NCBI GenBank assembly: GCA_048498715.1
Contig: JBEHXL010000009.1
Coordinates: 68,017 to 132,016 of the forward strand
From: Actinomycetota bacterium
GTDB lineage: Bacteria > Actinomycetota > Acidimicrobiia > Acidimicrobiales > JACCXE01
Direction of reading: 5' to 3'
Length of the DNA stretch: 64,000 nucleotides
The position numbers and the translations under genes were made by a program. Under the pieces are notes generated by a model. The model worked only from the letters and a program-made list of their open reading frames with translations. It did no database searches and was not told where the DNA came from. Shown here one piece after another: positions 17,982 to 33,498 of this stretch (positions are counted from its first letter, which is position 1; each line of letters starts with the position of its first letter).

Positions 17982-18028
17982 TTTTGGTCGTGATTAGGTA
18001 CGGATTCCGTACCTAATCACGACCAAAA
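17982..18028. terminator. perfect 22-bp inverted repeat between the convergent fabI and SRPBCC genes
   Basis: ttttggtcgtgattaggtacgg (17982-18003) / att / ccgtacctaatcacgaccaaaa (18007-18028). It is locally AT-rich in a GC-rich genome. Confidence 0.5.
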
Positions 18029-18031
18029 CTC

Positions 18032-18493
18032 TCACGACTCGGCGATTGCTTTGAGGCGGTTGAGGGTTTGGGTCATGCCTTCGCGGTTGGTTTTGCCGCG
18101 GAGGCGGCCAAGCAGGGCCCAGTAGATGCGGGTGCCAATGTTGTCGGCGAGTTGGAAGTACTCGGTGACGTCGGTGCCGCCGACCTTGCTCGTCTCGAAC
18201 CGGTAACCCCAGTTGTTGACGGTCATGCGGTCGGTGCCGACGGCAAACGCGAAAACCTTGCCGGGCTCACACTCTGTGACCTTGCACTCGGTCCAGTAGA
18301 CGGGGCCGACGCCGTTGCGCTTGACGTGGCCGCGGAACTTGGCGCCGACGGCGGGACCGGTCGCTCCCTCGAGCCACTCGGCTTCGAAGGTCTCGGGCGA
18401 GAGCTCGCCGATGCGGGTGACGTCCGACGCAATGTTCCAGCACGTCATCGCATCGGCGTCGACGTGGACGGTGACGGAATCGCCGAGGTTCAT
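18032..18493 (-). CDS. SRPBCC (START / polyketide cyclase-dehydrase-like) family protein
   Basis: A 153-aa protein starting at MNLGDSVTVH. Its ATG overlaps the pepA stop (ATGA). The pattern is typical of SRPBCC. Confidence 0.65.
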   Translation of the reverse strand: MNLGDSVTVHVDADAMTCWNIASDVTRIGELSPETFEAEWLEGATGPAVGAKFRGHVKRNGVGPVYWTECKVTECEPGKVFAFAVGTDRMTVNNWGYRFETSKVGGTDVTEYFQLADNIGTRIYWALLGRLRGKTNREGMTQTLNRLKAIAES

Positions 18494-19956
18494 CGGAACG
18501 TGCTCGCCAGCTCGATGAGGGTGCGGACGCCGAAGCCGGTGCCGCCCTTGACGATCTCGCCGTCGTTCTCCGGAGCTCGACTCGGGCCGGCGATGTCGAG
18601 GTGCGCCCAGGGCAAGCCGTCGACGAACTCCTGGAGGAACATGGCGCCGGCGATGGTGCCCGCCTGGCCGGGCGCCCCGATGTTCTTGATGTCGGCGATG
18701 TCGGAGTCGATGTGCTTGCGGTAGATCGCAGGGAGCGGCAGTTCCCACACCAATTCACCGGCGCCGGCCGCCGCGTCCTTGACCTTCTGGATTATGCCGT
18801 CGTTGTTGCCGAGCACCGCCGCGATGCGGTTACCGAGGGCGACGACCTGCGCGCCCGTCAACGTGGCGACGTCGATGATCGCGTTGGGTTTCTCTTCTGC
18901 CGCGAGCGACAGACCGTCGGACAACACGAGACGTCCTTCGGCGTCGGTGTTGAGGACCTCCATCGTCACGCCGTTGCGGGCGCGCAACACGTCGCCCGGC
19001 TTGACTGCCTTCGGGCCCGGCATGTTCTCGGTGCAGGTTGCGATCGCAACGACACGCGTCTTCACGCCGAGCGCCGCGCATGCCGCCGCCGCATTGAGGA
19101 CGGCCGCCGCGCCACCCATGTCGGTCTTCATGGTCTCCATGCCCTGCGCGGTCTTGAGCGACAGACCGCCCGAGTCGAACGTGATGCCCTTGCCGACGAA
19201 GAACAGCGTCTTCTTCGCCCCGGGCGGCGCGTACTCGAAGCGGATCAGGCGGGGTGGCTGGTCAGAGCCAAGCGACACGCCCCGCAGCGCGCCGAGTCGT
19301 TCCTTCTCGATCTTCTTCTCGTCCCAGACGGTCACCGTGACGTTGGGAAGATCCTTGCCCAGCGCCTTGGCGGCTTCGGCCAGATCGGTCGGGTTGAGCT
19401 CACCCGCCGGCTCGTTGATCCAGTCGCGTGCGTTGCACTGGTACTGCGCAACGAGCGCGCCCCGGTCGAGGCCCTTTTGCACCGCGGCCTTCGAACTCGT
19501 GAGGACGTAGAACTCGCTCAGGGCATCGGGCTCGCCCGCCTTCTTGAGCCGGGTGAACTTGTAGGTACCGAGCACGACGCCTTCGGCGATCGCCTGGCCC
19601 ACCGCACGCGGATCGAGCCCGGGCGCCGCGCTGGCACCGATGAAGGCGGCGACCTTCGCGAAGCGACGTGCCGCACGGGCACCGACGGCGAACGCGGCAC
19701 GCACACCGTCGACTGTTGCCTCGGCCTGCGAGCCGACGCCGACGCCAATGATCGTGGTGCCGTTGGCGCCCGGCACCGAGTGCGTCATGCCGGCCTTACC
19801 GGTGACGCCGCTCGCTTTGAGGTGCGCGGCGTCGAGATATTCGGCACCGGGCGCCTCTGGCGACACGAGCGGGCCGTCGGGCGACTGGAAGATGCCGACG
19901 ATGAACGCGTCGACGTCCTCCGGCGCGGCCTTCGTCGCGGTGAACGTGATCGGCAT
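18490..19956 (-). CDS. pepA: leucyl aminopeptidase (M17)
   Basis: VGKGITFDSGG, NTDAEGRLVL, and the conserved C-terminal catalytic domain. Confidence 0.9.
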   Translation of the reverse strand: MPITFTATKAAPEDVDAFIVGIFQSPDGPLVSPEAPGAEYLDAAHLKASGVTGKAGMTHSVPGANGTTIIGVGVGSQAEATVDGVRAAFAVGARAARRFAKVAAFIGASAAPGLDPRAVGQAIAEGVVLGTYKFTRLKKAGEPDALSEFYVLTSSKAAVQKGLDRGALVAQYQCNARDWINEPAGELNPTDLAEAAKALGKDLPNVTVTVWDEKKIEKERLGALRGVSLGSDQPPRLIRFEYAPPGAKKTLFFVGKGITFDSGGLSLKTAQGMETMKTDMGGAAAVLNAAAACAALGVKTRVVAIATCTENMPGPKAVKPGDVLRARNGVTMEVLNTDAEGRLVLSDGLSLAAEEKPNAIIDVATLTGAQVVALGNRIAAVLGNNDGIIQKVKDAAAGAGELVWELPLPAIYRKHIDSDIADIKNIGAPGQAGTIAGAMFLQEFVDGLPWAHLDIAGPSRAPENDGEIVKGGTGFGVRTLIELASTFR

Positions 19957-20501
19957 TAACGGACTTCCTTCACTCGGAGGGTGGCGTCACCCTCGACCCA
20001 GCGGGCCATGGCCCACAACAAACTCGACAAACGGTTGAGATACGGCAGCGCCAGCGTCTCGTTACCGGCGACGGCCGTGACCGCCCGGCGTTCGCAGCGA
20101 CGCACGATGGTGCGAGCGACGTCGAGCGCCGCCGCACCGGCGTCCTGGCCCGGCACGACGAACTCCTTCGGCACTTCGAACTTCGACTCGACCTCGTCGA
20201 CGTGACGCTCGAGCGCGTCGAGCATCGCCTGGTCGACGCAACTCGCGCCCGGTGTGAGCTTGTGCCAGTTCTCGGGCAGCGTGGCGAGTTCGGCCATCAG
20301 CACCCACAGGTCGCGGGCGACGTGCACGAGGATGTCGTCGACCTCGCCGCCCTGCGGGAAATGTGTGCGCGCCTGGCCGATGAAGGCCTGCGCCTCGTCG
20401 ACGTCGCCGTAGGCCATCGGCAGCGCCGAATCCTTCGGGACGCGTCCTCCATAGAGCAGACCCGTCGTGCCGTCATCGCCTTTGCCGGTGTAATGCGCCA
20501 T
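19956..20501 (-). CDS. pduO: ATP:cob(I)alamin adenosyltransferase, PduO type
   Basis: The N-terminus MAHYTGKGDDGTTGL matches the PduO/MMAB signature. Its stop overlaps the pepA ATG by 1 nt. Confidence 0.85.
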   Translation of the reverse strand: MAHYTGKGDDGTTGLLYGGRVPKDSALPMAYGDVDEAQAFIGQARTHFPQGGEVDDILVHVARDLWVLMAELATLPENWHKLTPGASCVDQAMLDALERHVDEVESKFEVPKEFVVPGQDAGAAALDVARTIVRRCERRAVTAVAGNETLALPYLNRLSSLLWAMARWVEGDATLRVKEVR

Positions 20502-20532
20502 TGCGAGCCCAGACGCTACCTTCGCCGTCGTC

Positions 20533-21696
20533 ATGTACCCCTGCCACGGCCTCCGCGTGCTCGACCTGTCCCGTGTGGTGGCGGGACCGATCTCGGGACG
20601 CATTCTTTCCGATCTCGGGGCCGACGTCGTCAAACTCGAGCCACCCGAGGGCGACGTGACCCGCGTGTGGGGCCAGATGCGCCACGGCCTCTCGGGCTTC
20701 TACACACAGCAGAACGCCGGCAAGCGGAACGTATGTGTCGACCTGCGCGCCGAGGGTGGAGTGGCGCTGGTGAAGCAGTTGGCGGCCCAGGCCGACATCG
20801 TCATCGAGAACTTCCGCGCCGGTGTCCTGGAACGCCTCGGTCTCGGCTACGACGATCTCGCCGCCGAGAACCCGAAGCTGATCATGTTGTCGGTGTCCGG
20901 CTTCGGCCGCGGCGGCCCCGAATCCCACCGGCCGGCGTACGCCCCGATGATGCAAGCCGAGACGGGCCTCGTGCACCGCCAGGCCGAGTTCGACGACGCA
21001 TGGCCGACCGATCCCATGTTGTCGATAGCGGACACGTTCTCCGGCCTGCACGGCACGATCGCCGTGTTCGCCGCCTTGCGGGTGCGCGACGAGACCGGGC
21101 GCGGCCAGCACATCGACATGGCGATGTTCGACGCGATGGTCTTCACCGACGACTACGCCCATCACGCCATCGACAACGAGCCGGTGCAGCGCCTGGGCGG
21201 CGACGTGTACGAAACGGTGATCGGTCCCGTGTTGTTCGCCGGTCAACTCCGCACGATCTGGGCCGGCGTGAAGCACCTCATCGAGGACCCCGCGGCCGGT
21301 GACGTGCCGATCGCTGACAAGGCCCGTCTGCGGAAGCAGGCGATTCAGGACTGGGCGCTGACGTTCGACAACTTCGACAATCTTGCCGACGCGCTCGACA
21401 AGTCCGGCCTTGCCTACGGGGTGGTGAAGGACCAATTCGAGGTGGTGCGCTCCCCCACGGCCGAGCATCGCGGCACAGTCGCGTCGATCGATGACAACAG
21501 CGGTACGGGCGCCACGCGCGGCGTCGTACAGACCCCGTACCGCTTCTCGGAGTCGGAGTCCGGTGTGCGCGGTCCGGCGCCGCACCGCGGTCAACACAAT
21601 CGTTCGGTGCTGACCGAGTGGCTCAGCCTCGACGACGCCACCGTCGACCTCCTCGTTCGCAAGGGCGTCCTGCAGGACGACGGTCTCGCGCCCTAG
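20533..21696 (+). CDS. family III CoA-transferase (CaiB/BaiF)
   Basis: GLRVLDLSRVVAGP...LGADVVKLEPP is the typical N-terminus of the family. Confidence 0.85.
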   Translation: MYPCHGLRVLDLSRVVAGPISGRILSDLGADVVKLEPPEGDVTRVWGQMRHGLSGFYTQQNAGKRNVCVDLRAEGGVALVKQLAAQADIVIENFRAGVLERLGLGYDDLAAENPKLIMLSVSGFGRGGPESHRPAYAPMMQAETGLVHRQAEFDDAWPTDPMLSIADTFSGLHGTIAVFAALRVRDETGRGQHIDMAMFDAMVFTDDYAHHAIDNEPVQRLGGDVYETVIGPVLFAGQLRTIWAGVKHLIEDPAAGDVPIADKARLRKQAIQDWALTFDNFDNLADALDKSGLAYGVVKDQFEVVRSPTAEHRGTVASIDDNSGTGATRGVVQTPYRFSESESGVRGPAPHRGQHNRSVLTEWLSLDDATVDLLVRKGVLQDDGLAP

Positions 21697-21707
21697 CTTT
21701 TGTCGTC

Positions 21708-22403
21708 ATGGCGACGAACCGATACGAACGCATCGCAACTGACGGCGGCGAGTTCGAGGCGTATTGCGCCCTCCCTGACGGTGATCAGGGACCGGGCGTG
21801 TTGGTCTTCCAGGAGATCTTCGGGATCAACGACAACATCCGCGAATTGTGCGATCGGCTTGCAGGTGCCGGATACGTCGCCATGGCACCCGACATGTTCT
21901 GGCGCATCGAGCCGCGCTTCGAACGCAAAGACGAATCCGGGATGGCGGACGCATTCGCGATCGTCCAAAAGTTCGACGCGGAAAAGGGCGTCACCGACAT
22001 TCAGGCCGCGAGCGCGCACTTGCGCGGCTTGAGTGAGTGCACCGGCAAGGTCGGCGCTGTCGGGTTCTGCCTCGGTGGCGGTCTCGCCTACGCCGCAGCC
22101 GCGTTCGCGGGTGTCGACGCTGCGGTCTCGTATTACGGCTCAGCGGTGAACAGCATGCTCGGCGACGCCGACAAGATCACCGTGCCGATCATGTTCCACT
22201 ACGGCGACAACGATCCGTTCATCCCCGGCGAGAACATCGACGAGGTCGAGAAGGTGTTCGCCGGCCGTTCCAACGTCGAGTTCTTTCGGTACGACGCGGG
22301 CCACGCGTTCAGCAACGCCGACGCCCCTTCGATGTACAACGCCGACGCCGCGTCGCTGGCGTGGCAGCGCACGCTGGACTTCTTCGCCGCGAACCTGGCT
22401 TAA
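21708..22403 (+). CDS. dienelactone hydrolase family protein
   Basis: VLVFQEIFG, GFCLGG nucleophile elbow, terminal GHAF. ATG at 21708. Confidence 0.85.
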   Translation: MATNRYERIATDGGEFEAYCALPDGDQGPGVLVFQEIFGINDNIRELCDRLAGAGYVAMAPDMFWRIEPRFERKDESGMADAFAIVQKFDAEKGVTDIQAASAHLRGLSECTGKVGAVGFCLGGGLAYAAAAFAGVDAAVSYYGSAVNSMLGDADKITVPIMFHYGDNDPFIPGENIDEVEKVFAGRSNVEFFRYDAGHAFSNADAPSMYNADAASLAWQRTLDFFAANLA

Positions 22404-22651
22404 GTCGCCTCTTCGATCAGGCCGCGCTCGTCGAGCAGAGCCAAGCCCTTCTCGACGTGGGGCAGCGGCATCTCGAGTGAGCTTGCGAGCCCCTCTGCGT
22501 TGAGGATCCCGTCGAGCGTCGCCAGCAACGGAACCAACACTTCGCCGGCCGCCCGCCCCTGAAACAACACGGGCGCGCCGCCGTTGACCACTGCGATCCC
22601 GTCCGGCAAGGGCACGACCTCAAGGCCTTCCTTGAGGCGAGGAACGTTCAT
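22400..22651 (-). CDS. stand-alone RRE/PqqD-like winged-helix peptide-binding protein (83 aa)
   Basis: The pattern P.L..G......DG......G.....L.G.A...L..LL..LDG......L...L.......V...L..L...GLI matches the N-terminal leader-binding domain of TOMM cyclodehydratase C proteins. Its ATG overlaps the upstream stop (ATGA). Confidence 0.6.
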   Translation of the reverse strand: MNVPRLKEGLEVVPLPDGIAVVNGGAPVLFQGRAAGEVLVPLLATLDGILNAEGLASSLEMPLPHVEKGLALLDERGLIEEAT

Positions 22652-23196
22652 TCGCCGACTTCCTTGCCGCAGGAGCAGCCGTGCATCCGAACGACGCGTC
22701 CCTCGATGACGGTTTCGTCAGCCGAGTGGCGACGGACGGTTCCGAGCAGGCGGCGCGGCACAGCCTCGACACCGGGCACGGTGACGGCGGTGCGGAGCGC
22801 GCCGATTTCATTCGCTGCGATCTTCACCAATTCGCGCAGTTGCGCGGTGGGTGGGGGCACGACGGCACGGAGCCAGTGGTTGTGGATCGCGTCGTGCACG
22901 GCAAGATCGGTCGCGTGCTGGCGCTCGCGTGCCTCGAAGCACTCGAAGCACGGACCACCGGGCGCGACCACCGGGCCAACCTGGAGACGGCCGTGATACC
23001 CCCACACCGGCACGAAGGGCTGCCGGGTGTTGTTGAGATCACGGGCGACCGTCAGCGCAGGCCGGGAAGCGACCACCACGACAAGCGCGTCGGCACCCAT
23101 TGGGTCCGATGGCCCCTCGTGTTGCACCCCGCGATCACGCAACACGTTGCGCACATCGCGGCCGTACATGCCGACGCCGACGACGAGCAGTCTCAC
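22648..23196 (-). CDS. E1/ThiF-like cyclodehydratase partner domain protein (182 aa)
   Basis: Rossmann-like MRLLVVGVGMYG. VGPVVAPGGPCFECFEAR resembles the GP..pG..gC..C..R motif of the SagC/ocin-ThiF type. C-terminal CSCG. The GTG start overlaps the YcaO stop (GTGA). Confidence 0.65.
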   Translation of the reverse strand: MRLLVVGVGMYGRDVRNVLRDRGVQHEGPSDPMGADALVVVVASRPALTVARDLNNTRQPFVPVWGYHGRLQVGPVVAPGGPCFECFEARERQHATDLAVHDAIHNHWLRAVVPPPTAQLRELVKIAANEIGALRTAVTVPGVEAVPRRLLGTVRRHSADETVIEGRVVRMHGCSCGKEVGE

Positions 23197-24161
23197 GGAG
23201 CGACCCTTTCGAGACGGGCATGCTCCGTCCAGCCGGGGGTCGGCGGTATCGGGCTGAGGCCGGGGACCACGACGCGCACCGCCGCCATGCCGATCGCGCG
23301 CAACTCGTCGCAGGTGAGGTCGACGGCGTACCCCGCGAGACCCAGCGTTCGCAGCCGGGCGACCAACGCCGGCTTGGAAACGTCGATCGCCGGTGTGGTG
23401 CTCGGCGACAGCGGCTCTCCTTCGGCGATCAGGTCGAAGGCCGGGTCGGCTGCGGGCTCTTCCGGGTACGCGTCGAAGGCGCGGCGGGTGCGGCGGCGAG
23501 CCAGTTCGAAGACCGCGGCGTCCTGCGCGTCGGACATTGCGGTCCCGGCCGCGACACCCACCTCAAACGAGGCCGCCCCCTGCGCGATCGCCACAGGCAC
23601 GCCGAGGTCGGATGTCGCGTCGAAGACCGCGACCTCTCCTTCAGCGGTCGCGATGTAGGGCAGCGGCGTGTTGCGTGTGCGGGCGACGGCGAGGGAATCA
23701 CGCGCGGCGCAGTCGAGAAACCCGCCGACGACGGCCGACCCCAGATCATCGGCCACGCAGATTCCGGCGAGCGACGCAGGCCAGAACGACTCAGCCTCGA
23801 CCGCGACCGGCAGTCCGACGTAGACCAGCATCGCTGGGATCCACACCGGCCGTCCATCGTCGAGGGCAAACCCTTCGACCCACCGGATGCGGTCGCGTGT
23901 CTCGAGGGAGGCCACGCGCGCGAGCTCTTCGACGGGGATCGCGTCGTCACCGAGTTCGTCGGCGCTCGCCCATCGCATCATCGGCGCATCCCAGCCGGCG
24001 GCGGCATACAGACCGACCGCGTTGCGCAATGCGTCGTTCGACGCGTCAGCTTCCGTTGGTCCAGCACCGATGCCGACAAGGGGCGGACAATGCTCCGGAT
24101 GTCGACCGTGACCCGCGGACGCGACACACACGAACGGACCCGCGTCGTCCTGCACGCGCAC
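23193..24161 (-). CDS. YcaO-domain protein, short, with a divergent ATP/Mg-binding motif
   Basis: GAGPTEADA..DALRNAVGLY aligns with GKGLTxxxAxxSAxxEAxERY. Other matches: VWIPAMLVY, DATSDLGVPVAIA, and the C-terminal AVRVVVPGLSPI. The first canonical start is GTG 24161, and similarity continues upstream (see findings). Confidence 0.8.
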   Translation of the reverse strand: MRVQDDAGPFVCVASAGHGRHPEHCPPLVGIGAGPTEADASNDALRNAVGLYAAAGWDAPMMRWASADELGDDAIPVEELARVASLETRDRIRWVEGFALDDGRPVWIPAMLVYVGLPVAVEAESFWPASLAGICVADDLGSAVVGGFLDCAARDSLAVARTRNTPLPYIATAEGEVAVFDATSDLGVPVAIAQGAASFEVGVAAGTAMSDAQDAAVFELARRRTRRAFDAYPEEPAADPAFDLIAEGEPLSPSTTPAIDVSKPALVARLRTLGLAGYAVDLTCDELRAIGMAAVRVVVPGLSPIPPTPGWTEHARLERVAP

Positions 24162-24254
24162 GTGCGAGACGAGGCCGCCGATCGGACTGACAAGGGACGT
24201 GAGACCAGATGCGATGCGCGGAACCTAGCCCGCATTGTGGGTAGAACGGCCTCC

Positions 24255-25229
24255 ATGAGTCGGGGCGCCCAGGTGTGGTTGGCTGTGGGCCTCGCGCTGT
24301 GCGCGCTCACTGCATGCGCTCCACGCGATCTCCGAGCTGTCGCCAACCCCGTCGCGCTGCGGATCAACGCCGCGGACGTACGCGGAATCCTGACGCTGCC
24401 GGTGACACCCGAGCCCGTGCCCGCCGTCGTGTTGTTGGCGGGCTACAGCTCCAGTGACATGGACGAGACCGTCGGCAAGACGAAGCCTTTTCGCGACATT
24501 GCGGAAGGGCTCGCGACGCGCGGCATTGCGACGCTTCGATTCGACAAGCCGATCCTGCATCGTGTGCCACCGCCGAACTTCACGCCGACGGAGGAGTACG
24601 TCGACTCCACTCGAGCGGCCGTGGCCTATCTACGCACGCGGTCCGAGGTCGACCAGACCCGCGTCTTCGTCCTCGGGCACAGCTTCGGGGGCACGATGGC
24701 ACCCAAAGCAGTCGTCGGACTGAACGTCGCCGGGCTGATTCTGTTGGCGCCGCCGGTGCGGCCGATCGCCGAGGTCCTTGCGTCGCAGTTCACGTACTTG
24801 CGCAGCCTCGGCGGCACGATCGGTTACGACGCCTCCCTCGCGACGCAGGACGCGCAGCAGTTCCTCGCCGCCGCCAGCAGTTCATCGCTGCGGCCCGATA
24901 CCGCCCTCAAGTCCGAACTCGCCTACGGCTACCACGGCGCGTACTTCCTCGATCTGCGCTCGTACGATCCGGTGCGGACCGCGGCGAACCTGCACGTCCG
25001 GATCCTCCTCTTGCAAGGCCGCCGTGACTACATGGTCACGATGAAGCAGGACCTCGATGTCTGGGTGGCCGGTCTGCGCGACACCGACCTCGAGGTGCGC
25101 ACCTACCCCGACGCAAACCACGCGCTGATCAACGGGACGGGCCGCCCGTCACCCGAGGACTTCGACCATCCGGGCCACGTGGCGGACCGCGCCATCGCGG
25201 ACATGGCCGACTGGGTCGAGCGCCGCTAA
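24255..25229 (+). CDS. alpha/beta-hydrolase lipoprotein
   Basis: Lipobox LTAC. Nucleophile elbow GHSFGG. ATG at 24255; the upstream part of the 709-aa ORF is antisense shadow. Confidence 0.8.
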   Translation: MSRGAQVWLAVGLALCALTACAPRDLRAVANPVALRINAADVRGILTLPVTPEPVPAVVLLAGYSSSDMDETVGKTKPFRDIAEGLATRGIATLRFDKPILHRVPPPNFTPTEEYVDSTRAAVAYLRTRSEVDQTRVFVLGHSFGGTMAPKAVVGLNVAGLILLAPPVRPIAEVLASQFTYLRSLGGTIGYDASLATQDAQQFLAAASSSSLRPDTALKSELAYGYHGAYFLDLRSYDPVRTAANLHVRILLLQGRRDYMVTMKQDLDVWVAGLRDTDLEVRTYPDANHALINGTGRPSPEDFDHPGHVADRAIADMADWVERR

Positions 25230-25274
25230 AGGGTTTAAGGAACACGGCCAGAACCTCGTAGCCTTGGAGCCACG

Positions 25275-28200
25275 ATGCGCGACTACCTCAAGGCCGTTAA
25301 CGAGCGCGTGGTCGTGTTCGACGGGGCCACTGGCACCAATCTGCACGCCCGCGACCTCACGATCGACGACTACGGCGGTCCGCAGTTCGAGGGATGCCCT
25401 GAGATCCTCAACGTCACCCGGCCTGACGTCATCCGCGATCTGCACGCGTCGTTCTTCGATGTTGGCGTCGACGTCGTCGAGACGAACAGCTTCGGGTCGT
25501 TCTCGACCGTCCTCACCGAATACGGCATTCCCGAGCGCGCCTACGAACTGTCGCACCTTGCGGCGTCGCTTGCGCGTGAAGTCGCAGACTCCTACGACGG
25601 CGAGCGTTTCGTCGCCGGCTCGCTCGGGCCGGGCACGAAGATGGCCACTCTCGGTTGGATCTCCTTCGCCGAGCTGCGCGATTCCTACGAGGTTGCCGCT
25701 CGCGGTCTGATCGAAGGCGGCGCCGACCTGATCATCATCGAGACGTGCCAGGACCTTCTCCAGGTCAAGGCGGCGATGATCGCAGCGCGCCGCGCGATGA
25801 AGGCTGCTGGTCGCGTCGTGCCGATCCAGACCCAGGTCACGATCGAGACAACCGGACGCATGCTCCTCGGCACCGAGATCGGCGCGGCGCTCGCCGCGCT
25901 CTCGCCGATGCGACCCGACGTGTTCGGCCTCAACTGCGCCACCGGACCGAAAGAGATGCACGAGCATCTGCGTCACCTATCGCGGTACTCGCCGTTCCCG
26001 ATCAGCTGCGTACCGAACGCGGGCCTGCCTTCGATCGTCGACGGGCACACGCACTACGACCTCACGCCGGAGCAGCTGGCCGACGCACACGCGCACAACG
26101 TCACCGAGCTCGGGATCACCGTGGTCGGTGGGTGCTGCGGTACCACTCCTGGTCACCTGAAGGCGGTTGTCGATCGCGTGCGTGACCTCACTCCGCTCAA
26201 GCGTGAGCCGATCGTCGAACCGAGCGTGTCATCGCTGTTCAGCGCGGTCCCGCTGCGCCAAGAGACGAGCTACCTCGTCATCGGTGAGCGCACCAACGCG
26301 AATGGCTCCAAGGCGTTCCGCGAAGCGATGCTGGCCGACGACTGGGACACGTGCGAGGCCATGGCGCGCGAGCAGGTGAAAGAGGGCAGCCACGCCGTCG
26401 ACGTCTGCGTGGACTACGTCGGCCGAGATGGCGTGCCGGACATGAGCGAACTCGCCCGCCGCTTCGCCGAGCGCGTCGACGCGGTGATGATGATCGATTC
26501 GACCGAGCCCGAGGTCATCCGCGCCGCGCTCGAACGGCTCGGCCCGCGCGCCATCATCAACTCGGTCAACCTCGAGGACGGCGACGGCGAGGAGACGCGT
26601 TTTCACAAGGTGCTGACGATGGCCGCCGAGTTCGGTGCCGCCGTCGTGTGCACGTGCATCGACGAAGAAGGCCAAGCCCGCACCCCGGAGTGGAAGCTGC
26701 GCGCCGCGCAAAAGATTCGCGACCTGGCCGTCAACCGGTACGGCCTACGCGACGAAGACCTTCTCTTCGACGCTCTCGCGCTCACGATCGGCGCCGGTCT
26801 CGAAGAGTCCCGAGGCGACGGCGCGTCCACCATCGAGGGCATCCGCCTCATCTCGCAGGAGATTCCGAACGCGTTCACGACGCTCGGCCTGTCGAACATC
26901 TCCTTCGGCCTGAATCCGGCCCTTCGCCACGTCATCAACTCGGTGTTCCTGCACGAATGTGTCGAGGCCGGCATGACCTCTGCCATCGCGCACGCCGGTC
27001 GCCTTATGCCGCTAAGTCGGATCGACGACGAGGACAAACAACTCGCGCTCGACCTCATCTACGACCGTCGCCGCTTCAACGAGGACGGCGACTGCGAGTA
27101 CGACCCGCTCACCATCCTTCTGAACAAGTTCGAGGGCGTGAAGGCCGGGGCCATCGAGAAGGAAGACCGCAGCGGATGGCCGGTCGAGGAGCGCCTCAAG
27201 GCGCGCATCGTCGAAGGCGACCGCGCCGGTATGGAAGCCGATCTCGACGAGGCGCTCGCCACCACGGAGGCGCTCGCGATCCTCAACGACACGCTGCTCG
27301 AAGGCATGAAGACCGTCGGCGACCTCTTCGGTCGCGGCGAGATGCAGTTGCCATTCGTATTGCAGTCGGCCGAGGCGATGAAGGCCGCGGTCGCTCATCT
27401 CGAACCGCACATGCCCAAGACCGAGGAGTCGACCAAGGGTCGCATCGTGCTCGCCACCGTCAAGGGTGACGTGCACGACATCGGCAAGAACCTCGTCGAC
27501 ATCATCCTCACCAACAACGGCTATGAGGTGTTCAACCTCGGCATCAAGGTGCCGCTCAACGACATGGTCCAGAAGGCACGCGAGGTCGGCGCCGACGCCA
27601 TCGGCATGAGCGGCCTTCTCGTGAAGTCGACGCTGATCATGCGCGAGAACCTCGAGGAGCTGAACGCGGCGGGTCTGGCGACGGACACGCCGATCATCCT
27701 CGGCGGCGCCGCGCTTACCCGCTCGTACGTCGAGCGCGATCTGCGTGACGTCTACGAGGGCCGTGTCTTCTACGGCAAGGACGCGTTCGAAGGTCTCCAC
27801 ACCCTCGACGAACTCATGACGAAGAAGCGCAGCGGCGAACTTGCGTCGGACACCACTTTCGGCATCGAGGCCGGGGGCCGGGTGCTGCCCAAGCGGGAGC
27901 CGAAGCCCACCGTCGATCCGTCGACGCTGCCTTCGCACGCACCGTCAGTCGTCACTGACAACGAGGTGTTCACTCCCCCGTTCCTCGGCACCCGAGTGAT
28001 CAAAGGCATCGCGCTCGACGACATTGCCGAATACATCAACGAGACGGCGCTGTTCCGCAACCAATGGCAATACCGCCCGGAGAGCGGGGAGAACGACGAC
28101 GAGTTCAAGACTCGAATCCGTCCGGTCCTGCGCGAACGGATGGCCGAAGCGAAGTCGCTCGGCCTGCTCGTGCCCCAGGTCGCGTACGGCTACTTCCCGG

Positions 28201-28748
28201 CGAACAAAGACGGCAACGACATCGTCATCTGGAAAGACGACGACCGGACCGCCGAATGGACCCGCTTTTCGCTGCCCCGTCAGCAGCAGGACCCCTACTT
28301 GTGCATCGCCGACTTCGTGAAGGCCGACGTTCCCGACTACGTCGCCTTCCACGTCGTCACCATGGGCAACGTGGTGTCCGAGCACGCAGCCAAGTTGTTC
28401 GCCGACAACAAGTACACGGACTACCTCCACGTGCACGGCTTGGGCGTCGAGATGGCCGAGGCGCTCGCCGAGCTGTGGCATCGCCGCATCCGTGAGGAGT
28501 GGGGCTTCGCGGACCAGGACGGCCCGACGCTGACCGGCCTGTTCCGCCAGCAGTACCGCGGCGGCCGCTACTCGTTCGGATACCCCGCGTGCCCCGACCT
28601 CGAAGACAACGTCAAGATCAACGAACTCCTCGAGGGTGAACGCATCGGCGTCGAATGCACCGAGGAAACCTCGTTCCAATATCAACCGGAACAGACCACC
28701 TCCGCCCTGATTCTCCACCACCCCCAGGCCAAGTACTTCGTCGCCTGA
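25275..28748 (+). CDS. metH: cobalamin-dependent methionine synthase
   Basis: An 1157-aa protein with all modules: Hcy-binding (GGCCGTTP), pterin-binding, B12-binding (GDVHDIGKN) and the AdoMet activation domain. Confidence 0.97.
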   Translation: MRDYLKAVNERVVVFDGATGTNLHARDLTIDDYGGPQFEGCPEILNVTRPDVIRDLHASFFDVGVDVVETNSFGSFSTVLTEYGIPERAYELSHLAASLAREVADSYDGERFVAGSLGPGTKMATLGWISFAELRDSYEVAARGLIEGGADLIIIETCQDLLQVKAAMIAARRAMKAAGRVVPIQTQVTIETTGRMLLGTEIGAALAALSPMRPDVFGLNCATGPKEMHEHLRHLSRYSPFPISCVPNAGLPSIVDGHTHYDLTPEQLADAHAHNVTELGITVVGGCCGTTPGHLKAVVDRVRDLTPLKREPIVEPSVSSLFSAVPLRQETSYLVIGERTNANGSKAFREAMLADDWDTCEAMAREQVKEGSHAVDVCVDYVGRDGVPDMSELARRFAERVDAVMMIDSTEPEVIRAALERLGPRAIINSVNLEDGDGEETRFHKVLTMAAEFGAAVVCTCIDEEGQARTPEWKLRAAQKIRDLAVNRYGLRDEDLLFDALALTIGAGLEESRGDGASTIEGIRLISQEIPNAFTTLGLSNISFGLNPALRHVINSVFLHECVEAGMTSAIAHAGRLMPLSRIDDEDKQLALDLIYDRRRFNEDGDCEYDPLTILLNKFEGVKAGAIEKEDRSGWPVEERLKARIVEGDRAGMEADLDEALATTEALAILNDTLLEGMKTVGDLFGRGEMQLPFVLQSAEAMKAAVAHLEPHMPKTEESTKGRIVLATVKGDVHDIGKNLVDIILTNNGYEVFNLGIKVPLNDMVQKAREVGADAIGMSGLLVKSTLIMRENLEELNAAGLATDTPIILGGAALTRSYVERDLRDVYEGRVFYGKDAFEGLHTLDELMTKKRSGELASDTTFGIEAGGRVLPKREPKPTVDPSTLPSHAPSVVTDNEVFTPPFLGTRVIKGIALDDIAEYINETALFRNQWQYRPESGENDDEFKTRIRPVLRERMAEAKSLGLLVPQVAYGYFPANKDGNDIVIWKDDDRTAEWTRFSLPRQQQDPYLCIADFVKADVPDYVAFHVVTMGNVVSEHAAKLFADNKYTDYLHVHGLGVEMAEALAELWHRRIREEWGFADQDGPTLTGLFRQQYRGGRYSFGYPACPDLEDNVKINELLEGERIGVECTEETSFQYQPEQTTSALILHHPQAKYFVA

Positions 28749-29209
28749 TGAGCATCTCACTGAATCCGATCGGGTACGTGCGCGGCGGTCGCGCCGAGGC
28801 GATCGACGACAACTGGGGCGACGTCGAAGCAGAGATCGAGCTCGACGCGCTGCAGTTCGACGCCGACGTGACCGCCGGGCTGGGCGACTTCAGTCATCTC
28901 GAGGTCGTGTACGTCTTCCACCAGGTCGACGAGGCGAAGATCGAAACGAAGGCTCGTCACCCTCGCAACAACCCGGACTGGCCGCTCGTCGGGATATTCG
29001 CGCAGAGAGCGAAGGGCCGGCCGAACCGCATCGGCGTCACGACGTGCGAGATCGTGGCCGTCGACGGCCTCCGTGTGACGGTCCGCGGGCTCGACGCCAT
29101 CGACGGCACACCGGTCGTCGACCTCAAGCCGTACATGACCGAGTTCGGCCCCCGGTCGGAGATCCGTCAGCCGGCCTGGTCGCACGAGCTCATGGCCAGT
29201 TATTGGTAG
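28748..29209 (+). CDS. TsaA/TrmO-like SAM-dependent methyltransferase
   Basis: PIGYVR, FSHLEVVYVFH, RPNRIGV, DAIDGTPVVDLKPY. The ATG overlaps the metH TGA (TGATG). Confidence 0.8.
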   Translation: MSISLNPIGYVRGGRAEAIDDNWGDVEAEIELDALQFDADVTAGLGDFSHLEVVYVFHQVDEAKIETKARHPRNNPDWPLVGIFAQRAKGRPNRIGVTTCEIVAVDGLRVTVRGLDAIDGTPVVDLKPYMTEFGPRSEIRQPAWSHELMASYW

Positions 29210-29242
29210 GGCCACGATCGACCAACCAAGCCGGGCACCTCG

Positions 29243-29290
29243 CTTGTTGGTCAGTGGTGGCCCCCTGTGGGGCCACGATCGACCAACAAG
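29243..29290. terminator. two-step hairpin between the convergent tsaA-like and egtB genes
   Basis: Outer 10-bp stem 29243-29252 / 29281-29290 and inner 8-bp stem 29257-29264 / 29269-29276. They are separated by a 4x4 internal loop, with apical loop ctgt. Confidence 0.45.
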
Positions 29291-29299
29291 CGTGACCGG

Positions 29300-30502
29300 T
29301 TACAGGTCGCGGGCCAGGCGCACGCCGCTGAAGGCCCACCGGCAGTGCGGGCCGAAGAAGTTGCGGTACGTCGGGCGGGCGTGGCCTTTCGGCGTGGCGC
29401 AGCACGAGCCCTTCAGGACCTGCTGGTTGATCATGAACTTGCCGTTGTATTCACCGACGGCGCCCGCCGCTGGCGCGAAGCCCGGATACGGCGAATACGC
29501 CGATGCCGTCCACTGCCACACCGAGCCGTACCACTCGTCGTCGACGGGATGCAGCCGCTTGAGGTCCAGACCCGAGCGGGCGGGCACCTTCTTCGGTGCG
29601 GCGATCTCCCACTCCGACTCGGTAGGTAGGCGCGCGCCGGACCAGCGAGCGAACGCATCGGCCTCGTACCAACTCACGTGGACGACTGGCTCATCGTCAC
29701 GTACGGCGAGGGGGCCTCCCATCGTGAAGGTCATCCATTCGTCGCCCTCGCGCCACCAGTACAGCGGCGAATCCCATCCGTCGGCCTTGACCCGCGCCCA
29801 TCCGTCGCTCATCCAGAACTCGGGCCGCTCATAGCCGCCGTCGTCCATGAAGGCGAGCCACTCGCCGCACGAGACCAGCGACTCCGAAATCTCGAACGGC
29901 TGCAGGAACGTCTCGTGGCGCGGTGATTCGTTGTCGAAGAAGAACTCGTCGCCGGCGTAACCCACCTCGGCGACGCCGCCGTCGTGCTGGGTCCAGATGC
30001 CGACCTTCGGCCGGTCGATCGGCTGGTCCCACCAGCGAGCCTTGCCGTAATGCGGCTGAGTCGGGTTCATCGCGAGGACGTGCTTGATGTCCATCACGAT
30101 GAGTTCTTGGTGCTGTTGCTCGTGGTGGAGGCCGAGGGTGACGAGCTCGGGTGCGAGCCCGCGCTCGAGCAAGACGTGCATGTTCTCGTCGACGTAGTGG
30201 CGGTAGTCCCCGATTTCCTTCGCTCCCGGGCGGGTAAGCAGACCGCGCTCGTTGCGCGCGTGGCGCGGCCCGATGCCCTCGTAGTACGAGTTGAAGAGGA
30301 ATCGGTAGTTCGGGTCCCACGAGCGGTAACCCTTCAAGGAAGGCTCGAGGAGGAACGTCTCGAAGAACCAGGTGGTGTGCGCCCGGTGCCACTTGGTGGG
30401 TGACACATCCGCCATCGACTGGACGGTCTGGTCTTCGGCCGACAACGGCTCAGCCAACGCCTCTGTCAGCCTGCGCACTGCGTCGTAGTCGAGTGGTTTC
30501 AC
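29300..30502 (-). CDS. egtB: hercynine oxygenase / sulfoxide synthase
   Basis: DinB-like N-terminus (SPTKWHRAHTTWFFE, LFNSYY) plus an FGE-sulfatase-like C-terminus. The GTG start overlaps the egtD stop (GTGA). Confidence 0.88.
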   Translation of the reverse strand: MKPLDYDAVRRLTEALAEPLSAEDQTVQSMADVSPTKWHRAHTTWFFETFLLEPSLKGYRSWDPNYRFLFNSYYEGIGPRHARNERGLLTRPGAKEIGDYRHYVDENMHVLLERGLAPELVTLGLHHEQQHQELIVMDIKHVLAMNPTQPHYGKARWWDQPIDRPKVGIWTQHDGGVAEVGYAGDEFFFDNESPRHETFLQPFEISESLVSCGEWLAFMDDGGYERPEFWMSDGWARVKADGWDSPLYWWREGDEWMTFTMGGPLAVRDDEPVVHVSWYEADAFARWSGARLPTESEWEIAAPKKVPARSGLDLKRLHPVDDEWYGSVWQWTASAYSPYPGFAPAAGAVGEYNGKFMINQQVLKGSCCATPKGHARPTYRNFFGPHCRWAFSGVRLARDL

Positions 30503-31458
30503 AAATGCACCCCGGCGAGAGTCAACAGGAAGTCTCCTGCCTCGTCCGTCCACTGATCCAGCACCTTCAGTCCGGCCGCGGCGAGTTCACGATTGACGCC
30601 CGCCGGAGTGAATTTGGCGCTGATCTCGGTGCGGATCGATTCGCCCTCCGCGAATTCGATGTCGATGCCGAGCGCCTCGAGGTGGACGTGCTGCGCAGTC
30701 AGCGACACCAAGCGCATCTCGATCCAGTTCTCGTCTTCGTTGTACAGCGCAACGTGACGGAACATCTCGACGTCGAAGTCGGCACCGAACTCCCGGTTCA
30801 GCCGCGTCAACACGTTCAGGTCGAACGCCGCGGTGACGCCCTGGGCATCGTCGTAGGCGGCGACCAGACGGTGACGGTCCTTCTGCAGGTCGGTGCCGAG
30901 CAGGAAGGTGTCGCCGTCCTTCATGCCGGATCGGATCGTGTTGATCATCTCCGCCCGTGCCATCGGCGCGAAGTTGCCGATCGTGGAGCCGAGCAGGGCG
31001 ATCATCTGCTTGCCCGTCTTGGGGAGATGGACGAGGTCGGAGTTGAAGTCGCCGACGATGCCGTGCACGTCGAGCCCGGGGTACTCGGCCACGAGTGCCT
31101 CGCCGGCCTCGCGCAGGGTCGATTCGGCCACGTCGAAGGGCACGTACGTCGCGGGCATCGACATCACGTCCAACAGGAAGCGCGTCTTCTCCGAGTTACC
31201 CGATCCGAGCTCGACGAGGGTGTCGGGTTCGGCCATGGCCACGATTTCCTTGCCCCGCTCCCGCAGGATCGAGCGCTCTGCCTTGAAGGGGTAGTACTCG
31301 TCGAGTTTGGTGATCTCGTCGTAGATCTCACAGCCGCGCTCGTCGTAGAACCACACGGGCGACAGCACCTTGTGCGTCGCCGTGAGGCCTTCGATGAGTT
31401 CTTCTCTGAGCGCGACAGAAGCCGCGTCTTCGTCGAGGAATACCTCAACCCGCATCAT
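30499..31458 (-). CDS. egtD: L-histidine N-alpha-methyltransferase
   Basis: WFYDERGCEIYDEITKLDEYYPFKAE, LVELGSGNSEKTRFLLD. Start at ATG 31458 or 31455. Confidence 0.9.
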   Translation of the reverse strand: MMRVEVFLDEDAASVALREELIEGLTATHKVLSPVWFYDERGCEIYDEITKLDEYYPFKAERSILRERGKEIVAMAEPDTLVELGSGNSEKTRFLLDVMSMPATYVPFDVAESTLREAGEALVAEYPGLDVHGIVGDFNSDLVHLPKTGKQMIALLGSTIGNFAPMARAEMINTIRSGMKDGDTFLLGTDLQKDRHRLVAAYDDAQGVTAAFDLNVLTRLNREFGADFDVEMFRHVALYNEDENWIEMRLVSLTAQHVHLEALGIDIEFAEGESIRTEISAKFTPAGVNRELAAAGLKVLDQWTDEAGDFLLTLAGVHL

Positions 31459-31528
31459 GAGCAGCGTAGGCAAGGGGTGTGACATCGGGAAGCAGTACCC
31501 CCGAAATCACGCCGCGTTACAGAAAAGG

Positions 31529-32404
31529 TCACCCACCTAGTACGGCGCGGGCGACCAGATCGGTTCCAAATCCCGTCAAAATCGCGAGGTACAGCAGGCC
31601 CGTAGCGGCCATGACCGCGCTGTACGACCGCTCTTTGAGCGCCGCGTTGGTGACCGCGCAGAGCGCGATTGTCGTGATCGCGCACGCGATCCAGAACCAG
31701 CCGAGCATCCCGCCGTAGCCGTCGTCGATGCGACCACTGAAAACCGAGAACATGCCCGTCGGAAGCAGCAAGAACACCACCTCGACGGGCCATATGCGTG
31801 CGATCCAGTTGTTCAGTTCGAACAGCGGCGTTCGAGGCAGGCCGGGCTGCACGAGGTACCAGTGCCCAAGCAGCATCGCGTTCGTGACCGCGCCCAGGAA
31901 CGCCGCGCCGGTCACTGTGCGCGCGACGGAGAGCAACGTCGTACCCGTCCCGCCGTGCGCGTCAGCGACGCCAGCGGCGATCAGACCCACGAGCCCGACA
32001 ACGGGCGCCACGAGATCGAGAACGGGCGGAAATTCATCGCCCGTCGGCACGGTGTCCACGAACGTCTCGTTGCTGACCGGGTGGTCCAGCATCGCCTGGA
32101 CCCGCGCCTGACGCGCCGCAGCGACGTCTTTTGCACCCGACACGCCTGCCTTGCGCCGGACGATCGACACGATCAACGCGAGCCCGGCCGCGAGGATCAC
32201 CCCGGCGCTTGCAAGCTCACGGACCGCGACGGTATCGACAGCCATACCCGCGGCGATCGAGCCACCGGCCAACGTCATGAAGACCGAGCGGTTCAGCCAG
32301 CCGTAACCGATGCCGAGCAGCCGGCCGCGGGTGGTGACCCACGTGAAGAACAGTCCGCCGACGGCCCACTGGAGAAGGACAGTTGCGGCGTCGAGCTTGA
32401 TCAA
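31529..32404 (-). CDS. polytopic integral membrane protein, unknown function
   Basis: About 7-8 hydrophobic segments. The TTG start at 32404 overlaps the upstream stop (TTGA). The N-terminal part of the 384-aa ORF is Arg-rich shadow. Confidence 0.55.
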   Translation of the reverse strand: MIKLDAATVLLQWAVGGLFFTWVTTRGRLLGIGYGWLNRSVFMTLAGGSIAAGMAVDTVAVRELASAGVILAAGLALIVSIVRRKAGVSGAKDVAAARQARVQAMLDHPVSNETFVDTVPTGDEFPPVLDLVAPVVGLVGLIAAGVADAHGGTGTTLLSVARTVTGAAFLGAVTNAMLLGHWYLVQPGLPRTPLFELNNWIARIWPVEVVFLLLPTGMFSVFSGRIDDGYGGMLGWFWIACAITTIALCAVTNAALKERSYSAVMAATGLLYLAILTGFGTDLVARAVLGG

Positions 32405-33498
32405 ACGATCACGAGGTCGTGGTTCGACCCGTTGAGCGCGATCGGTCCGTCCTCGCTGGCGATGACGATGTCTTCCAGACGCGCCCCGAACCGGCCGGGC
32501 AGGTAGATACCCGGCTCGACCGAGAATGCGTTGCCCGCCTCGAGCGGTGTCTTGTTGCCCTCGACCAGGTACGGATCTTCGTGCACGTCGCGACCGATGC
32601 CATGACCCGTTCGGTTCGTGAAGAACTCGCCGTAGCCGGCGTCGGCAATGACGTCGCGTGCCGCCGCGTCGACCTCCGCGCACGGTGTCCCGATGGTCGC
32701 CGCCGCCACTCCGGCGGCGTGGGCCTCGGCGATCACCGCGTACATCTCTTGCATCTCGGGCGACGGCTCGCCGGTGACGACAGTCCGCGTGGTGTCGGAG
32801 CAGTAGCCGTCGAGGATGCCGCCGAAGTCACACACAACCATTTCGTCGCGACCGATGATCCGATCGCCGGGTTCGTGGTGCGGTGAGGCCGAGTTCGGGC
32901 CCGACGCAACGATCACGAACGCAACCTTGTCGTGGCCTTCGGCCACAAGGCGGCGACCGATGTCGCCCGCGACTTCCGCCTCGGAGCGACCGACGAGTTT
33001 GATCTCGCCGCTGTGAATCGCATTGGCCACGCGGTCAGCCGCCGCGCCGGCGCGCGTGAGCGCGTCGATTTCTGCTGCGTCCTTGGCGGCGCGCAGCGGG
33101 CCGGTGATCATCGACGCCGGTAGCCAGCGACGCGCGGGCAGTTCGTCCTGCAGCGCAAGGAGGAACTGTGACCAGGTGTGGTTCCCGATGGCCATGGTGA
33201 TGCGGGGACCGATGAGGCCGGCGACGATCTCGATCGGGTTGTCCGTCTCGTTCCACGGCAGCAGCTTGAACAGTTCGGGCCGCTCCTCTACGCGCGGCGC
33301 TTCGAGACGCGGCACGACGAGGGTCGGCTCCTCCTTGGCCGGCACGACCAGCATGGTGAGCCGCTCGAGTGGCATAGCCTCGTAGCCACACAGCCACGGC
33401 AGATCCGCCCCCACTGACAGGAGAAGCGCGTCGATTGCCATGTCGGTCATCCGGTGGCGCACCCGCGCCAAACGATCCTGGAAGGCAGCTGCGCTCAC
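32401..33498 (-). CDS. Xaa-Pro aminopeptidase/dipeptidase (M24B)
   Basis: Creatinase-like N-domain plus a pita-bread domain (HGIGRDVHEDP, FSVEPGIY). Confidence 0.88.
   Translation of the reverse strand: MSAAAFQDRLARVRHRMTDMAIDALLLSVGADLPWLCGYEAMPLERLTMLVVPAKEEPTLVVPRLEAPRVEERPELFKLLPWNETDNPIEIVAGLIGPRITMAIGNHTWSQFLLALQDELPARRWLPASMITGPLRAAKDAAEIDALTRAGAAADRVANAIHSGEIKLVGRSEAEVAGDIGRRLVAEGHDKVAFVIVASGPNSASPHHEPGDRIIGRDEMVVCDFGGILDGYCSDTTRTVVTGEPSPEMQEMYAVIAEAHAAGVAAATIGTPCAEVDAAARDVIADAGYGEFFTNRTGHGIGRDVHEDPYLVEGNKTPLEAGNAFSVEPGIYLPGRFGARLEDIVIASEDGPIALNGSNHDLVIV

Follow-up and report, generated by a model that had tools for sequence, protein, structure and literature searches.

Orphan YcaO genes are usually taken for enzymes that lack a substrate. 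Here we ask what such a gene and its two partners are in a stretch of 64,000 nucleotides from an Actinomycetota bacterium of the Acidimicrobiales (assembly GCA_048498715.1, contig JBEHXL010000009.1, positions 68,017 to 132,016; below, the window, whose own coordinates are used throughout). A minus-strand trio in the window encodes a YcaO-domain protein, an E1-like protein and a recognition element (RRE) of the kind found in pathways for peptides that are synthesised ribosomally and modified post-translationally (RiPPs), and its neighbours are genes of core metabolism. We find that the YcaO protein has lost its key catalytic residues in the whole clade, that a related lineage carries an intact five-gene cluster at the orthologous position, and that all three genes are under purifying selection. 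We lean towards reading the trio as the core left from a small thiazoline-type RiPP cluster and kept as a non-catalytic complex that binds a peptide or protein ligand.

The trio consists of the following features. The gene limits come from the list of open reading frames (ORFs), and the overlaps were read directly from the sequence.

23193-24161, minus strand: YcaO-domain gene, 322 aa from the GTG at 24161
22648-23196, minus strand: E1-like gene, 182 aa
22400-22651, minus strand: RRE gene, 83 aa
23193-23196, minus strand: GTGA stop/start overlap of the YcaO and E1-like genes (translational coupling)
22648-22651, minus strand: ATGA stop/start overlap of the E1-like and RRE genes

The E1-like and RRE partners expected of a cyclodehydratase of the thiazole/oxazole-modified microcin (TOMM) type thus lie directly beside the YcaO gene, each joined by a 4-nt overlap. 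The GTGA overlap recurs in the orthologous loci L001 and L002, and the ATGA overlap in L002 and L014. At the other end, the TAA of the RRE gene overlaps the stop of a convergent dienelactone hydrolase (DLH) gene in the sequence CTTAAG (22400-22403).

Loss of the catalytic residues in the YcaO protein

The window protein belongs to the YcaO family, matching Pfam PF02624 over the full profile (residues 32-303) with 91.7 bits, against a cut-off of 25.7; the canonical relative in locus L012 obtains 257.7 bits. It is, however, far under the curated cut-off of every specific NCBIfam YcaO model. The scores are 86.3 bits for TIGR03604, SagD (cut-off 219.25, compared with 208.8 for the sister-lineage protein P0043 and 319.7 for L012), 24 bits for TIGR00702 (cut-off 75.65) and 30.9 bits for TIGR03266, the TfuA-dependent thioamide-forming model (cut-off 365). 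A sequence search of the PDB gave MusD as the sole match, with an E-value of 0.048.

The residues were mapped by alignment to the E. coli YcaO protein (EcYcaO, from NC_000913). Residues that bind ATP are conserved throughout the YcaO superfamily (PMC4979651), and in the window protein the ATP/Mg2+-binding glutamates are replaced: E75 by N, E78 by G, E199 by D and E202 by A. Further replacements are found at S71 (D), R79 (L), S184 (C), N187 (D) and R286 (A), while R203, D204 and E290 are kept.

These losses are shared by the clade to which the window protein belongs, the window clade. The census comprises 44 sequences; in four of them, which are N-terminal fragments, positions 75 and 78 cannot be scored. 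Glutamate is found at neither of these two positions in the other 40 (0/40 at 75, 0/40 at 78), and it is missing from position 202 in all 44, where 42 have Ala, one Gly and one Cys. Position 199 is Asp in 42 of the 44. The active-site Thr/Ser that precedes a conserved Gly, the equivalent of McbD T148, is Ala in most members. The PxPxP tail, a canonical motif of azoline-forming YcaOs (PMC12338566), is absent; the window protein ends in ...HARLERVAP and the clade proteins in ...HARLARVAP. According to hhalign, the clade profile stops about 22 residues short of the NPWPQPFA tail of canonical relatives. The same comparison confirms the register, pairing ...DAlr~Al~lY of the clade with the canonical ...Av~EAlErY, and LD~vARD with lE~IERD. 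Several loops are also shortened in the window protein.

To place this pattern among related proteins, a clade-profile search was made of 1.84 billion representatives at 50% identity, and the 136 full-length nearest representatives were scored. All four glutamates are kept in 135 of them. In McbD, the E167A replacement almost abolished processing, and the C-terminal Pro residues matter as well (PMC6395948). Replacements of ATP-binding residues in EcYcaO, E202A among the variants, left thioamidation incomplete (PMC13063428).

The two partner proteins

The 182-aa protein has no significant family match, and its TIGR03882 score of 29.6 bits is under the cut-off of 36.9, which relatives in L012 (51.5) and L016 (45.3) pass. 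An AlphaFold2 (AF2) model was built from 28 homologues, with a predicted local distance difference test (pLDDT) score of 92. The best Foldseek matches of this model are LynD, TruD, McbB and MusD (E 6e-10 to 1e-7), followed by MccB, MoeB and ThiF, and the template modelling (TM) score against the McbB fold is 0.71. The sequence profile aligns with LynD residues 131-220 (E 1.4e-4). A CxxC...CxC pattern is invariant in the E1-like proteins (C83, C86, C174 and C176), and it has the same arrangement as the structural zinc site described in McbB (PMC6395948). Judging from the model, the protein is a minimal E1-like (ThiF-fold) partner with a predicted structural tetra-Cys zinc site.

The AF2 model of the 83-aa protein (pLDDT 87) has the winged-helix RRE fold, with four short beta-strands, three helices and a final strand. 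Foldseek ranks the PbtF RRE first (8t19, TM 0.77), then the LynD RRE, TbiB1, the MccB N-terminus, ThcOx and PqqD. The top matches are RREs solved with bound leaders (8t19, 4v1v, 5v1v). Sequence profiles are less informative: there is no PqqD match at E <= 1, and Pfam and NCBIfam give weak winged-helix matches (Rrf2, ArsR). In a PDB profile search with the RRE alignment, MusD residues 36-81 are matched weakly (E 1.2); the designer pentatricopeptide-repeat (PPR) proteins at the top of that search were rejected as an artefact of ten summed sub-threshold repeat matches. A tblastn search pairs the protein with the N-terminus of a Luedemannella flava protein in which an RRE is fused to SagB. The modelled fold identifies the 83-aa protein as a stand-alone RRE, i.e. 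a PqqD-like winged helix.

The E1-like and RRE proteins also occur naturally fused (P0103, 243 aa, L021 3-1321), directly downstream of a YcaO gene whose product ends in ...DAWPQPFA. This gives Rosetta-stone support for the two small proteins working together.

Up to this point the locus agrees with the original prediction, which was made without database searches. The three minus-strand genes are chained by GTGA and ATGA overlaps, and the RRE stop overlaps the DLH stop, as it described. Its YcaO, E1-like and RRE assignments are supported by Pfam PF02624, by AF2 with Foldseek and by the LynD profile match. It also correctly described core-metabolism neighbours and no precursor or tailoring genes near the trio. 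Pfam was applied to the genes up to about 10 kb from the trio and to a few others beyond, and the whole 64 kb was covered by an ORF scan based on the GC content of third codon positions (GC3). Within this scope no precursor-like ORF, SagB/nitroreductase, HExxH protease or exporter was seen, and the GC3 scan found no Cys-rich small ORF in the window.

An intact cluster at the orthologous position

The trio has the same gene order and the same chromosomal position in every related locus that we recovered. On one side of this slot lies metH, on the other the genes for a CoA-transferase, a PduO-type adenosyltransferase and PepA. A sister group occupies the same slot in the loci L011, L015, L017, L018, L019 and L020, at about 42% YcaO identity. 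For L015 and L017 in this group, the identities to the window are 42-45% for YcaO, 43-48% for the E1-like protein and 50% for the RRE, with the three genes in the same order.

These two members of the sister group, both Acidimicrobiales MAG loci, come from independent samples, and in each of them two additional genes lie immediately upstream of YcaO:

L015, 7462-10752: precursor, HExxH protease, YcaO, E1-like, RRE; next to metH
L017, 943-4203: precursor, HExxH protease, YcaO, E1-like, RRE; next to metH

The CoA-transferase, PduO and PepA genes follow downstream in L015, and the L017 contig ends after the RRE gene. The precursor is an ORF of 56-57 aa with a GC3 of 0.93. Its sequence is MREPLELDDDFELYAEALPEEADLK-CLIPQCIIAPPQCVIFCYPPETPPLPQCVIA in L015 and ...EPLELDDTFELYAEVLPEEADLRS-LCDLIAPPQCVIACYPPDPGGGLPPMQCVIG in L017. 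The leader is conserved and acidic (EPLELDD.FELYAE.LPEEADL); the core varies and is rich in Cys, with 3-5 of these residues in contexts of the PQCVI type. The protease is a 345-aa membrane protein with an HExxH motif and an RRE-like N-terminus, which matches models of RiPP proteases, namely daptide_HExxH (an intramembrane metalloprotease) with 90 bits and also YydH/LiaK. The YcaO proteins of both loci have all four glutamates, the active-site Thr and an NP(F/L)PVPFA tail.

By its gene content, the L015/L017 set is a complete small thiazoline-type RiPP cluster without a dehydrogenase, with a thiazoline peptide as the predicted product. It is an apparently undescribed RiPP system in its own right. 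The full five-gene cluster is known from one ENA contig and one Logan contig only, and scans of JGI metagenomes found no relatives of its precursor or protease. Searches with tblastn gave no match to either gene in the window or in the window-clade loci. An adjacent precursor, as expected for an azoline-forming TOMM cyclodehydratase, is therefore missing at the window and present at the orthologous position in L015 and L017. The positionally orthologous full cluster indicates that the window trio is a remnant, rather than a system that never had a precursor.

The loci L002, L010, L015 and L020 come from long-read soil metagenomes and contain many frameshifted housekeeping genes (metH, pepA, CoA-transferase). 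Apparent gene fragments in these loci, such as the YcaO of L015 with its split C-terminus, probably reflect faulty assembly rather than biology. The orphan trio of L020 (8001-10186) includes an intermediate YcaO, P0150, a 474-aa protein whose called N-terminus is probably too long. A 56-aa ORF after the L020 RRE gene was considered as a precursor and rejected, as it is the frameshifted C-terminus of the CoA-transferase.

The more distantly related loci L012 and L016 hold canonical TOMM systems, which comprise a SagD-family YcaO, a TIGR03882 protein and an RRE-SagB dehydrogenase fusion. No obvious precursor gene adjoins the TOMM set in either locus. L012 (9887-14178) is from a cultured organism, Luedemannella flava JCM 13250, and there the SagD-family YcaO and the TIGR03882 protein are accompanied by a 543-aa RRE/E1-like/SagB fusion and a second nitroreductase.

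Erosion follows the absence of a precursor

In a neighbour-joining (NJ) tree with 100 bootstraps, the syntenic group is monophyletic with 70% support, the window clade with 72%, the sister group with 98% and the full-cluster lineage with 100%. Three orphan lineages, whose erosion patterns differ, have the full-cluster lineage nested among them:

L015 and L017, full five-gene cluster: YcaO with all four Glu, Thr and tail
L011, L018 and P0151, orphan trio: YcaO with K75, tail lost
L020 (P0150), orphan trio: YcaO with N75, R78 and Asp in place of the Thr; E199 and E202 kept, as is a PVQTPFA tail
Window clade, orphan trio: YcaO with the four Glu, the Thr and the tail all lost

Erosion of the YcaO protein is seen only in lineages without an adjacent precursor. 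The simplest coherent reading is that precursor and protease were lost repeatedly and that the catalytic residues then relaxed independently.

The pattern could also be read in the opposite direction. A precursor-less trio, serving as a housekeeping protein-modifying system, would then be ancestral, and the L015/L017 lineage would have gained precursor and protease later. The distant canonical-YcaO relatives L012 and L016 also lack an obvious adjacent precursor, which fits this account, as does the tree itself, on which one gain is more parsimonious than three losses. It would, however, need a matching precursor and a protease bearing an RRE to have arrived exactly beside an old trio. Furthermore, the outgroups are canonical TOMM systems with SagB dehydrogenases, i.e. 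RiPP machinery, and a single late gain, though it needs fewer steps, leaves the independent and differing erosion of the precursor-less lineages unexplained. We consider this ancestry improbable.

The RRE has changed as well. Its strand beta-3 reads PVRFRGRAA in the full-cluster and partly eroded lineages and PV/ALFQGRAA throughout the window clade. Two basic residues are thereby gone from the peptide-binding strand, and the lost precursor leader is strongly acidic. The change would fit the loss or a change of ligand.

The trio is maintained by purifying selection

Selection was estimated by pairwise dN/dS (ratio of nonsynonymous to synonymous substitution rates) with the Nei-Gojobori method (NG86), comparing the window with five clade orthologues. 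The approximate ratios of the trio genes are 0.21-0.25 (YcaO), 0.13-0.20 (E1-like) and 0.15-0.38 (RRE), and those of the neighbours PepA, CoA-transferase and DLH are 0.18-0.29. A dN/dS above 1 for the adenosyltransferase against L001 and L005 is an artefact of coordinate trimming and was disregarded. In the other orphan lineage the trio has a dN/dS of 0.12-0.28. The reading frames are open in all clade homologues that we retrieved, a few of them partial (42 YcaO, 53 E1-like, 45 RRE); their divergence reaches 58-60% identity, and the samples are from JGI, ENA, NCBI and Logan. The trio is under purifying selection and is not a decaying pseudogene.

The constraint is not uniform. The dN of YcaO is 0.25-0.32, faster than that of its partners and most neighbours (0.14-0.25). 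Between the window clade and the sister group, the dN of the trio genes is 0.40-0.58 and that of the neighbours 0.18-0.35. This roughly twofold divergence suggests a shift in constraint.

A functionless relic awaiting deletion, conserved by slow decay or by hitch-hiking in a stable part of the core genome, would match the missing substrate and protease genes, the trimmed loops and tail of the YcaO protein and its faster evolution. Yet dN/dS is 0.13-0.38 and not near 1, and the frames have stayed intact at this divergence in sequences from dozens of separate samples. The loci compared keep the 4-nt overlaps, conservation of the E1-like protein equals that of PepA or the CoA-transferase, and purifying selection on the trio extends to two orphan lineages outside the window clade. 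We regard a relic as improbable.

A probable path from RiPP maturase to non-catalytic complex

The history that we favour would start with a small thiazoline-type RiPP cluster, TOMM-like or similar to those of linear azol(in)e-containing peptides (LAPs), that sat in this chromosomal slot in an uncultured Acidimicrobiales lineage. Its five genes would have encoded a Cys-rich precursor with an acidic leader, an RRE-fused HExxH intramembrane protease, a PxPxP-tailed YcaO cyclodehydratase, an E1-like zinc protein and an RRE. In the window lineage the precursor and protease genes would have been lost first, and the YcaO protein would then have lost the ATP/Mg-binding glutamates, the active-site Thr and the C-terminal tail. 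An assembly of all three proteins like that of McbBCD or LynD most likely persists, with the RRE and the E1-like protein as a peptide clamp and the YcaO protein docked on the E1-like protein. ATP-dependent activation of a peptide backbone is probably gone. Purifying selection on all three genes, together with the conserved translational coupling, suggests that the complex is kept for a non-catalytic job, which may be the binding of some peptide or protein ligand. Complex formation, catalytic inactivity and the ligand-binding role are what we infer from these observations.

The same selection and coupling would be expected if the trio were still an active amide-activating enzyme with a non-canonical site, whose peptide or protein substrate is encoded elsewhere in the genome. 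YcaOs with substrates in trans exist, e.g. EcYcaO acting on uL16 (PMC13063428), and the substrate-recruiting RRE and E1-like proteins are the best conserved parts of the trio. R203 and D204 also remain, as do the Asp at 199, the Asp/Glu at 290 and the clade-invariant Asp at 71. However, every clade member that can be scored has jointly lost Glu 75, 78 and 202 along with the active-site Thr and the PxPxP tail, and nearly all full-length neighbouring representatives (135/136) keep the four glutamates. McbD is crippled already by single Glu replacements (PMC6395948). The restriction of erosion to lineages without an adjacent precursor and the two basic residues gone from the RRE peptide-binding strand also speak against an active enzyme, which we find unlikely.

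Several observations weigh against a retained, non-catalytic remnant. Acidic residues are left near the former site, i.e. the clade-invariant D43 (EcYcaO 71), the Asp at 199 and the Asp/Glu at 290, and from the sequence the window-clade YcaO may have a non-canonical nucleotide or metal site. Single ATP-site mutants of overexpressed EcYcaO were still partly active (PMC13063428), and the catalytic inactivity of the window protein is a conclusion drawn from sequence. On the NJ tree one gain of precursor and protease in L015/L017 takes fewer steps than three losses. The comparison loci L002, L010, L015 and L020 are contigs of nanopore metagenome-assembled genomes (MAGs) with frameshifts. Synonymous sites are near saturation (proportion of synonymous differences, pS, 0.43-0.71), so that the dN/dS values are rough, yet clearly far from 1. 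The search for a precursor in trans spanned 64 kb of the genome.

The original prediction needs to be revised at this point. It took the missing precursor and tailoring genes to argue against a conventional RiPP cluster and suggested either a working YcaO enzyme with its substrate in trans or a new non-RiPP role. The first argument falls with the Cys-rich precursor and HExxH protease that adjoin the orthologous trios in L015 and L017. A working amide-activating YcaO does not agree with the clade-wide absence of E75, E78, E202, the active-site Thr and the PxPxP tail, with Asp in place of E199. The prediction itself had reasoned that orthologous loci with adjacent precursor and tailoring genes would make this copy a decayed remnant. 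Such loci exist and the copy is a remnant; decay is contradicted by the dN/dS of 0.13-0.38 and by the conserved frames and overlaps. The idea of a new role survives in a changed form: purifying selection makes a role probable, and it is most likely non-catalytic rather than enzymatic.

More tentatively, this could be the first described "pseudo-YcaO", a RiPP maturase complex that has been stripped of its substrate and its chemistry and kept clade-wide in soil Acidimicrobiales for a new non-enzymatic function. It might bind or sense a peptide, perhaps the thiazoline peptide that sister lineages from the same habitats would still produce, and the changed RRE strand would then reflect a new ligand. 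The literature that could be searched yielded no account of a YcaO that is catalytically dead and yet kept by selection; earlier accounts may exist outside it.

At one chromosomal position, a series can be followed from a five-gene cluster through partly eroded orphan trios to a large clade whose YcaO has none of the four key glutamates and is nevertheless under selection along with its two partners. Its origin as a remnant largely explains the orphan enzyme among core-metabolism genes; that an eroded three-protein maturase is kept under selection was unexpected. If the trio is a working non-catalytic complex, the YcaO/E1-like/RRE machinery joins the enzymes that have turned into pseudoenzymes. 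It would also call for caution in genome mining, where a YcaO match is equated with a biosynthetic cluster.

Comparison with known YcaO systems

By the features that define azoline-forming cyclodehydratases the trio falls short: it has neither the ATP/Mg residues nor the PxPxP tail, no precursor lies beside it, and its scores are under the curated cut-offs of the respective hidden Markov models. Among the closest known systems is McbBCD, the microcin B17 synthetase of E. coli, where a separate YcaO protein (McbD) works with an E1-like scaffold that has a structural CxxC...CxC zinc site and with an RRE. In McbB, however, the RRE and the E1-like domain are in one chain with the RRE first, whereas the window has two proteins and the RRE gene comes last. 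McbD keeps the Mg-binding Glu and the C-terminal Pro residues, unlike the window protein, and the McbC dehydrogenase, precursor, export and immunity genes of the microcin B17 system are absent at the window.

The cyanobactin heterocyclases LynD, TruD and MusD are the best structural and profile matches of both small proteins, the RRE corresponding to domain 1 and the E1-like protein to domain 2. The heterocyclases make azolines and lack a dehydrogenase domain of their own, a lack that the sister-lineage cluster shares. They differ from the trio in being single fusions of 750-780 aa with an intact YcaO domain; the window YcaO matches MusD weakly and without the catalytic residues. In the thiopeptide systems PbtF/PbtG and TbtF/TbtG, the YcaO protein and its leader-binding partner are split, as in the trio. 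The 83-aa protein finds its top structural match in the PbtF RRE, and TIGR03882 and TIGR03604 are the best NCBIfam matches of the trio. However, both scores are under the cut-offs (29.6 vs 36.9 and 86 vs 219), no thiopeptide genes are found at the window, and the YcaO site is eroded.

EcYcaO, which thioamidates uL16, and the TfuA-associated YcaOs, which thioamidate McrA, act on full-length proteins encoded elsewhere, and this was the analogy drawn in the original prediction. These enzymes work without an E1-like or RRE partner, their ATP-binding residues are all in place, and EcYcaO has a C-terminal dimerisation domain. No TfuA gene is found among the neighbours within 10 kb. The sister five-gene cluster is also close, with the same slot and the same three genes, to which it adds the precursor, the RRE-HExxH protease and an intact YcaO.

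Gene start and genomic context

The 5' end of the YcaO gene had been placed at 24227, with about 30-93 nt to a divergent hydrolase gene. The hydrolase start (ATG 24255, an alpha/beta-hydrolase lipoprotein) and the 93-nt gap hold, the gap being that from the GTG at 24161. Position 24227 does not hold as the end of the gene; it belongs to an in-frame upstream stop (TAG 24227-24225), and the first canonical start is GTG 24161. Between the two lies the following stretch:

24162-24224, minus strand: in-frame stretch upstream of the YcaO start, encoding ...SPIGGLVSH, the same as the N-termini of orthologues (alignment with P0001/P0005)

No ATG, GTG or TTG is found between the TAG and GTG 24161, and the start codon of the orthologues (GTG/ATG) is GTC in the window.

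The region 18003-32651 is 100% identical to a public MAG contig (GCA_048498435.1, JBEHXZ010000041.1; our L014). There, a 262-aa YcaO from ATG 23981 is annotated, together with a 379-aa hydrolase that overruns the YcaO N-terminus. An exact-sequence lookup with the 322-aa protein gave no match; the public record has the 262-aa version. The close relatives are all from MAGs or metagenomes of uncultured Acidimicrobiales/Actinomycetota. Scans of the window with Rfam and for tRNAs gave no match, and PADLOC no defence-system match for any of the three trio proteins. A promoter scan around the trio found no site; four terminator-like matches were obtained.

The neighbouring genes encode DLH, a family III CoA-transferase, a PduO-type cobalamin adenosyltransferase, PepA, MetH, TrmO, EgtB/EgtD-like proteins and type II fatty acid synthesis (FAS II) proteins. 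DLH was considered as a functional partner and rejected, as the place of its gene varies among the orthologous loci (downstream convergent, upstream divergent, or absent).

Three further gene sets of the window lie apart from the trio. At 58370-60987, about 35 kb from it and with no link to it, a pair of M16 (insulinase-like) peptidase genes is found. At 29300-31485 the gene of an FGE-sulfatase-like protein (417 aa) adjoins that of a Methyltransf_33 histidine-specific methyltransferase (328 aa). The two resemble the EgtB/EgtD ergothioneine pair, and the pair is also kept in L001. Finally, a single ORF of 1239 aa at 43801-47520 combines two permease domains of the branched-chain-amino-acid type of ATP-binding cassette (ABC) transporters with two ABC ATPase domains, an unusual all-in-one importer.

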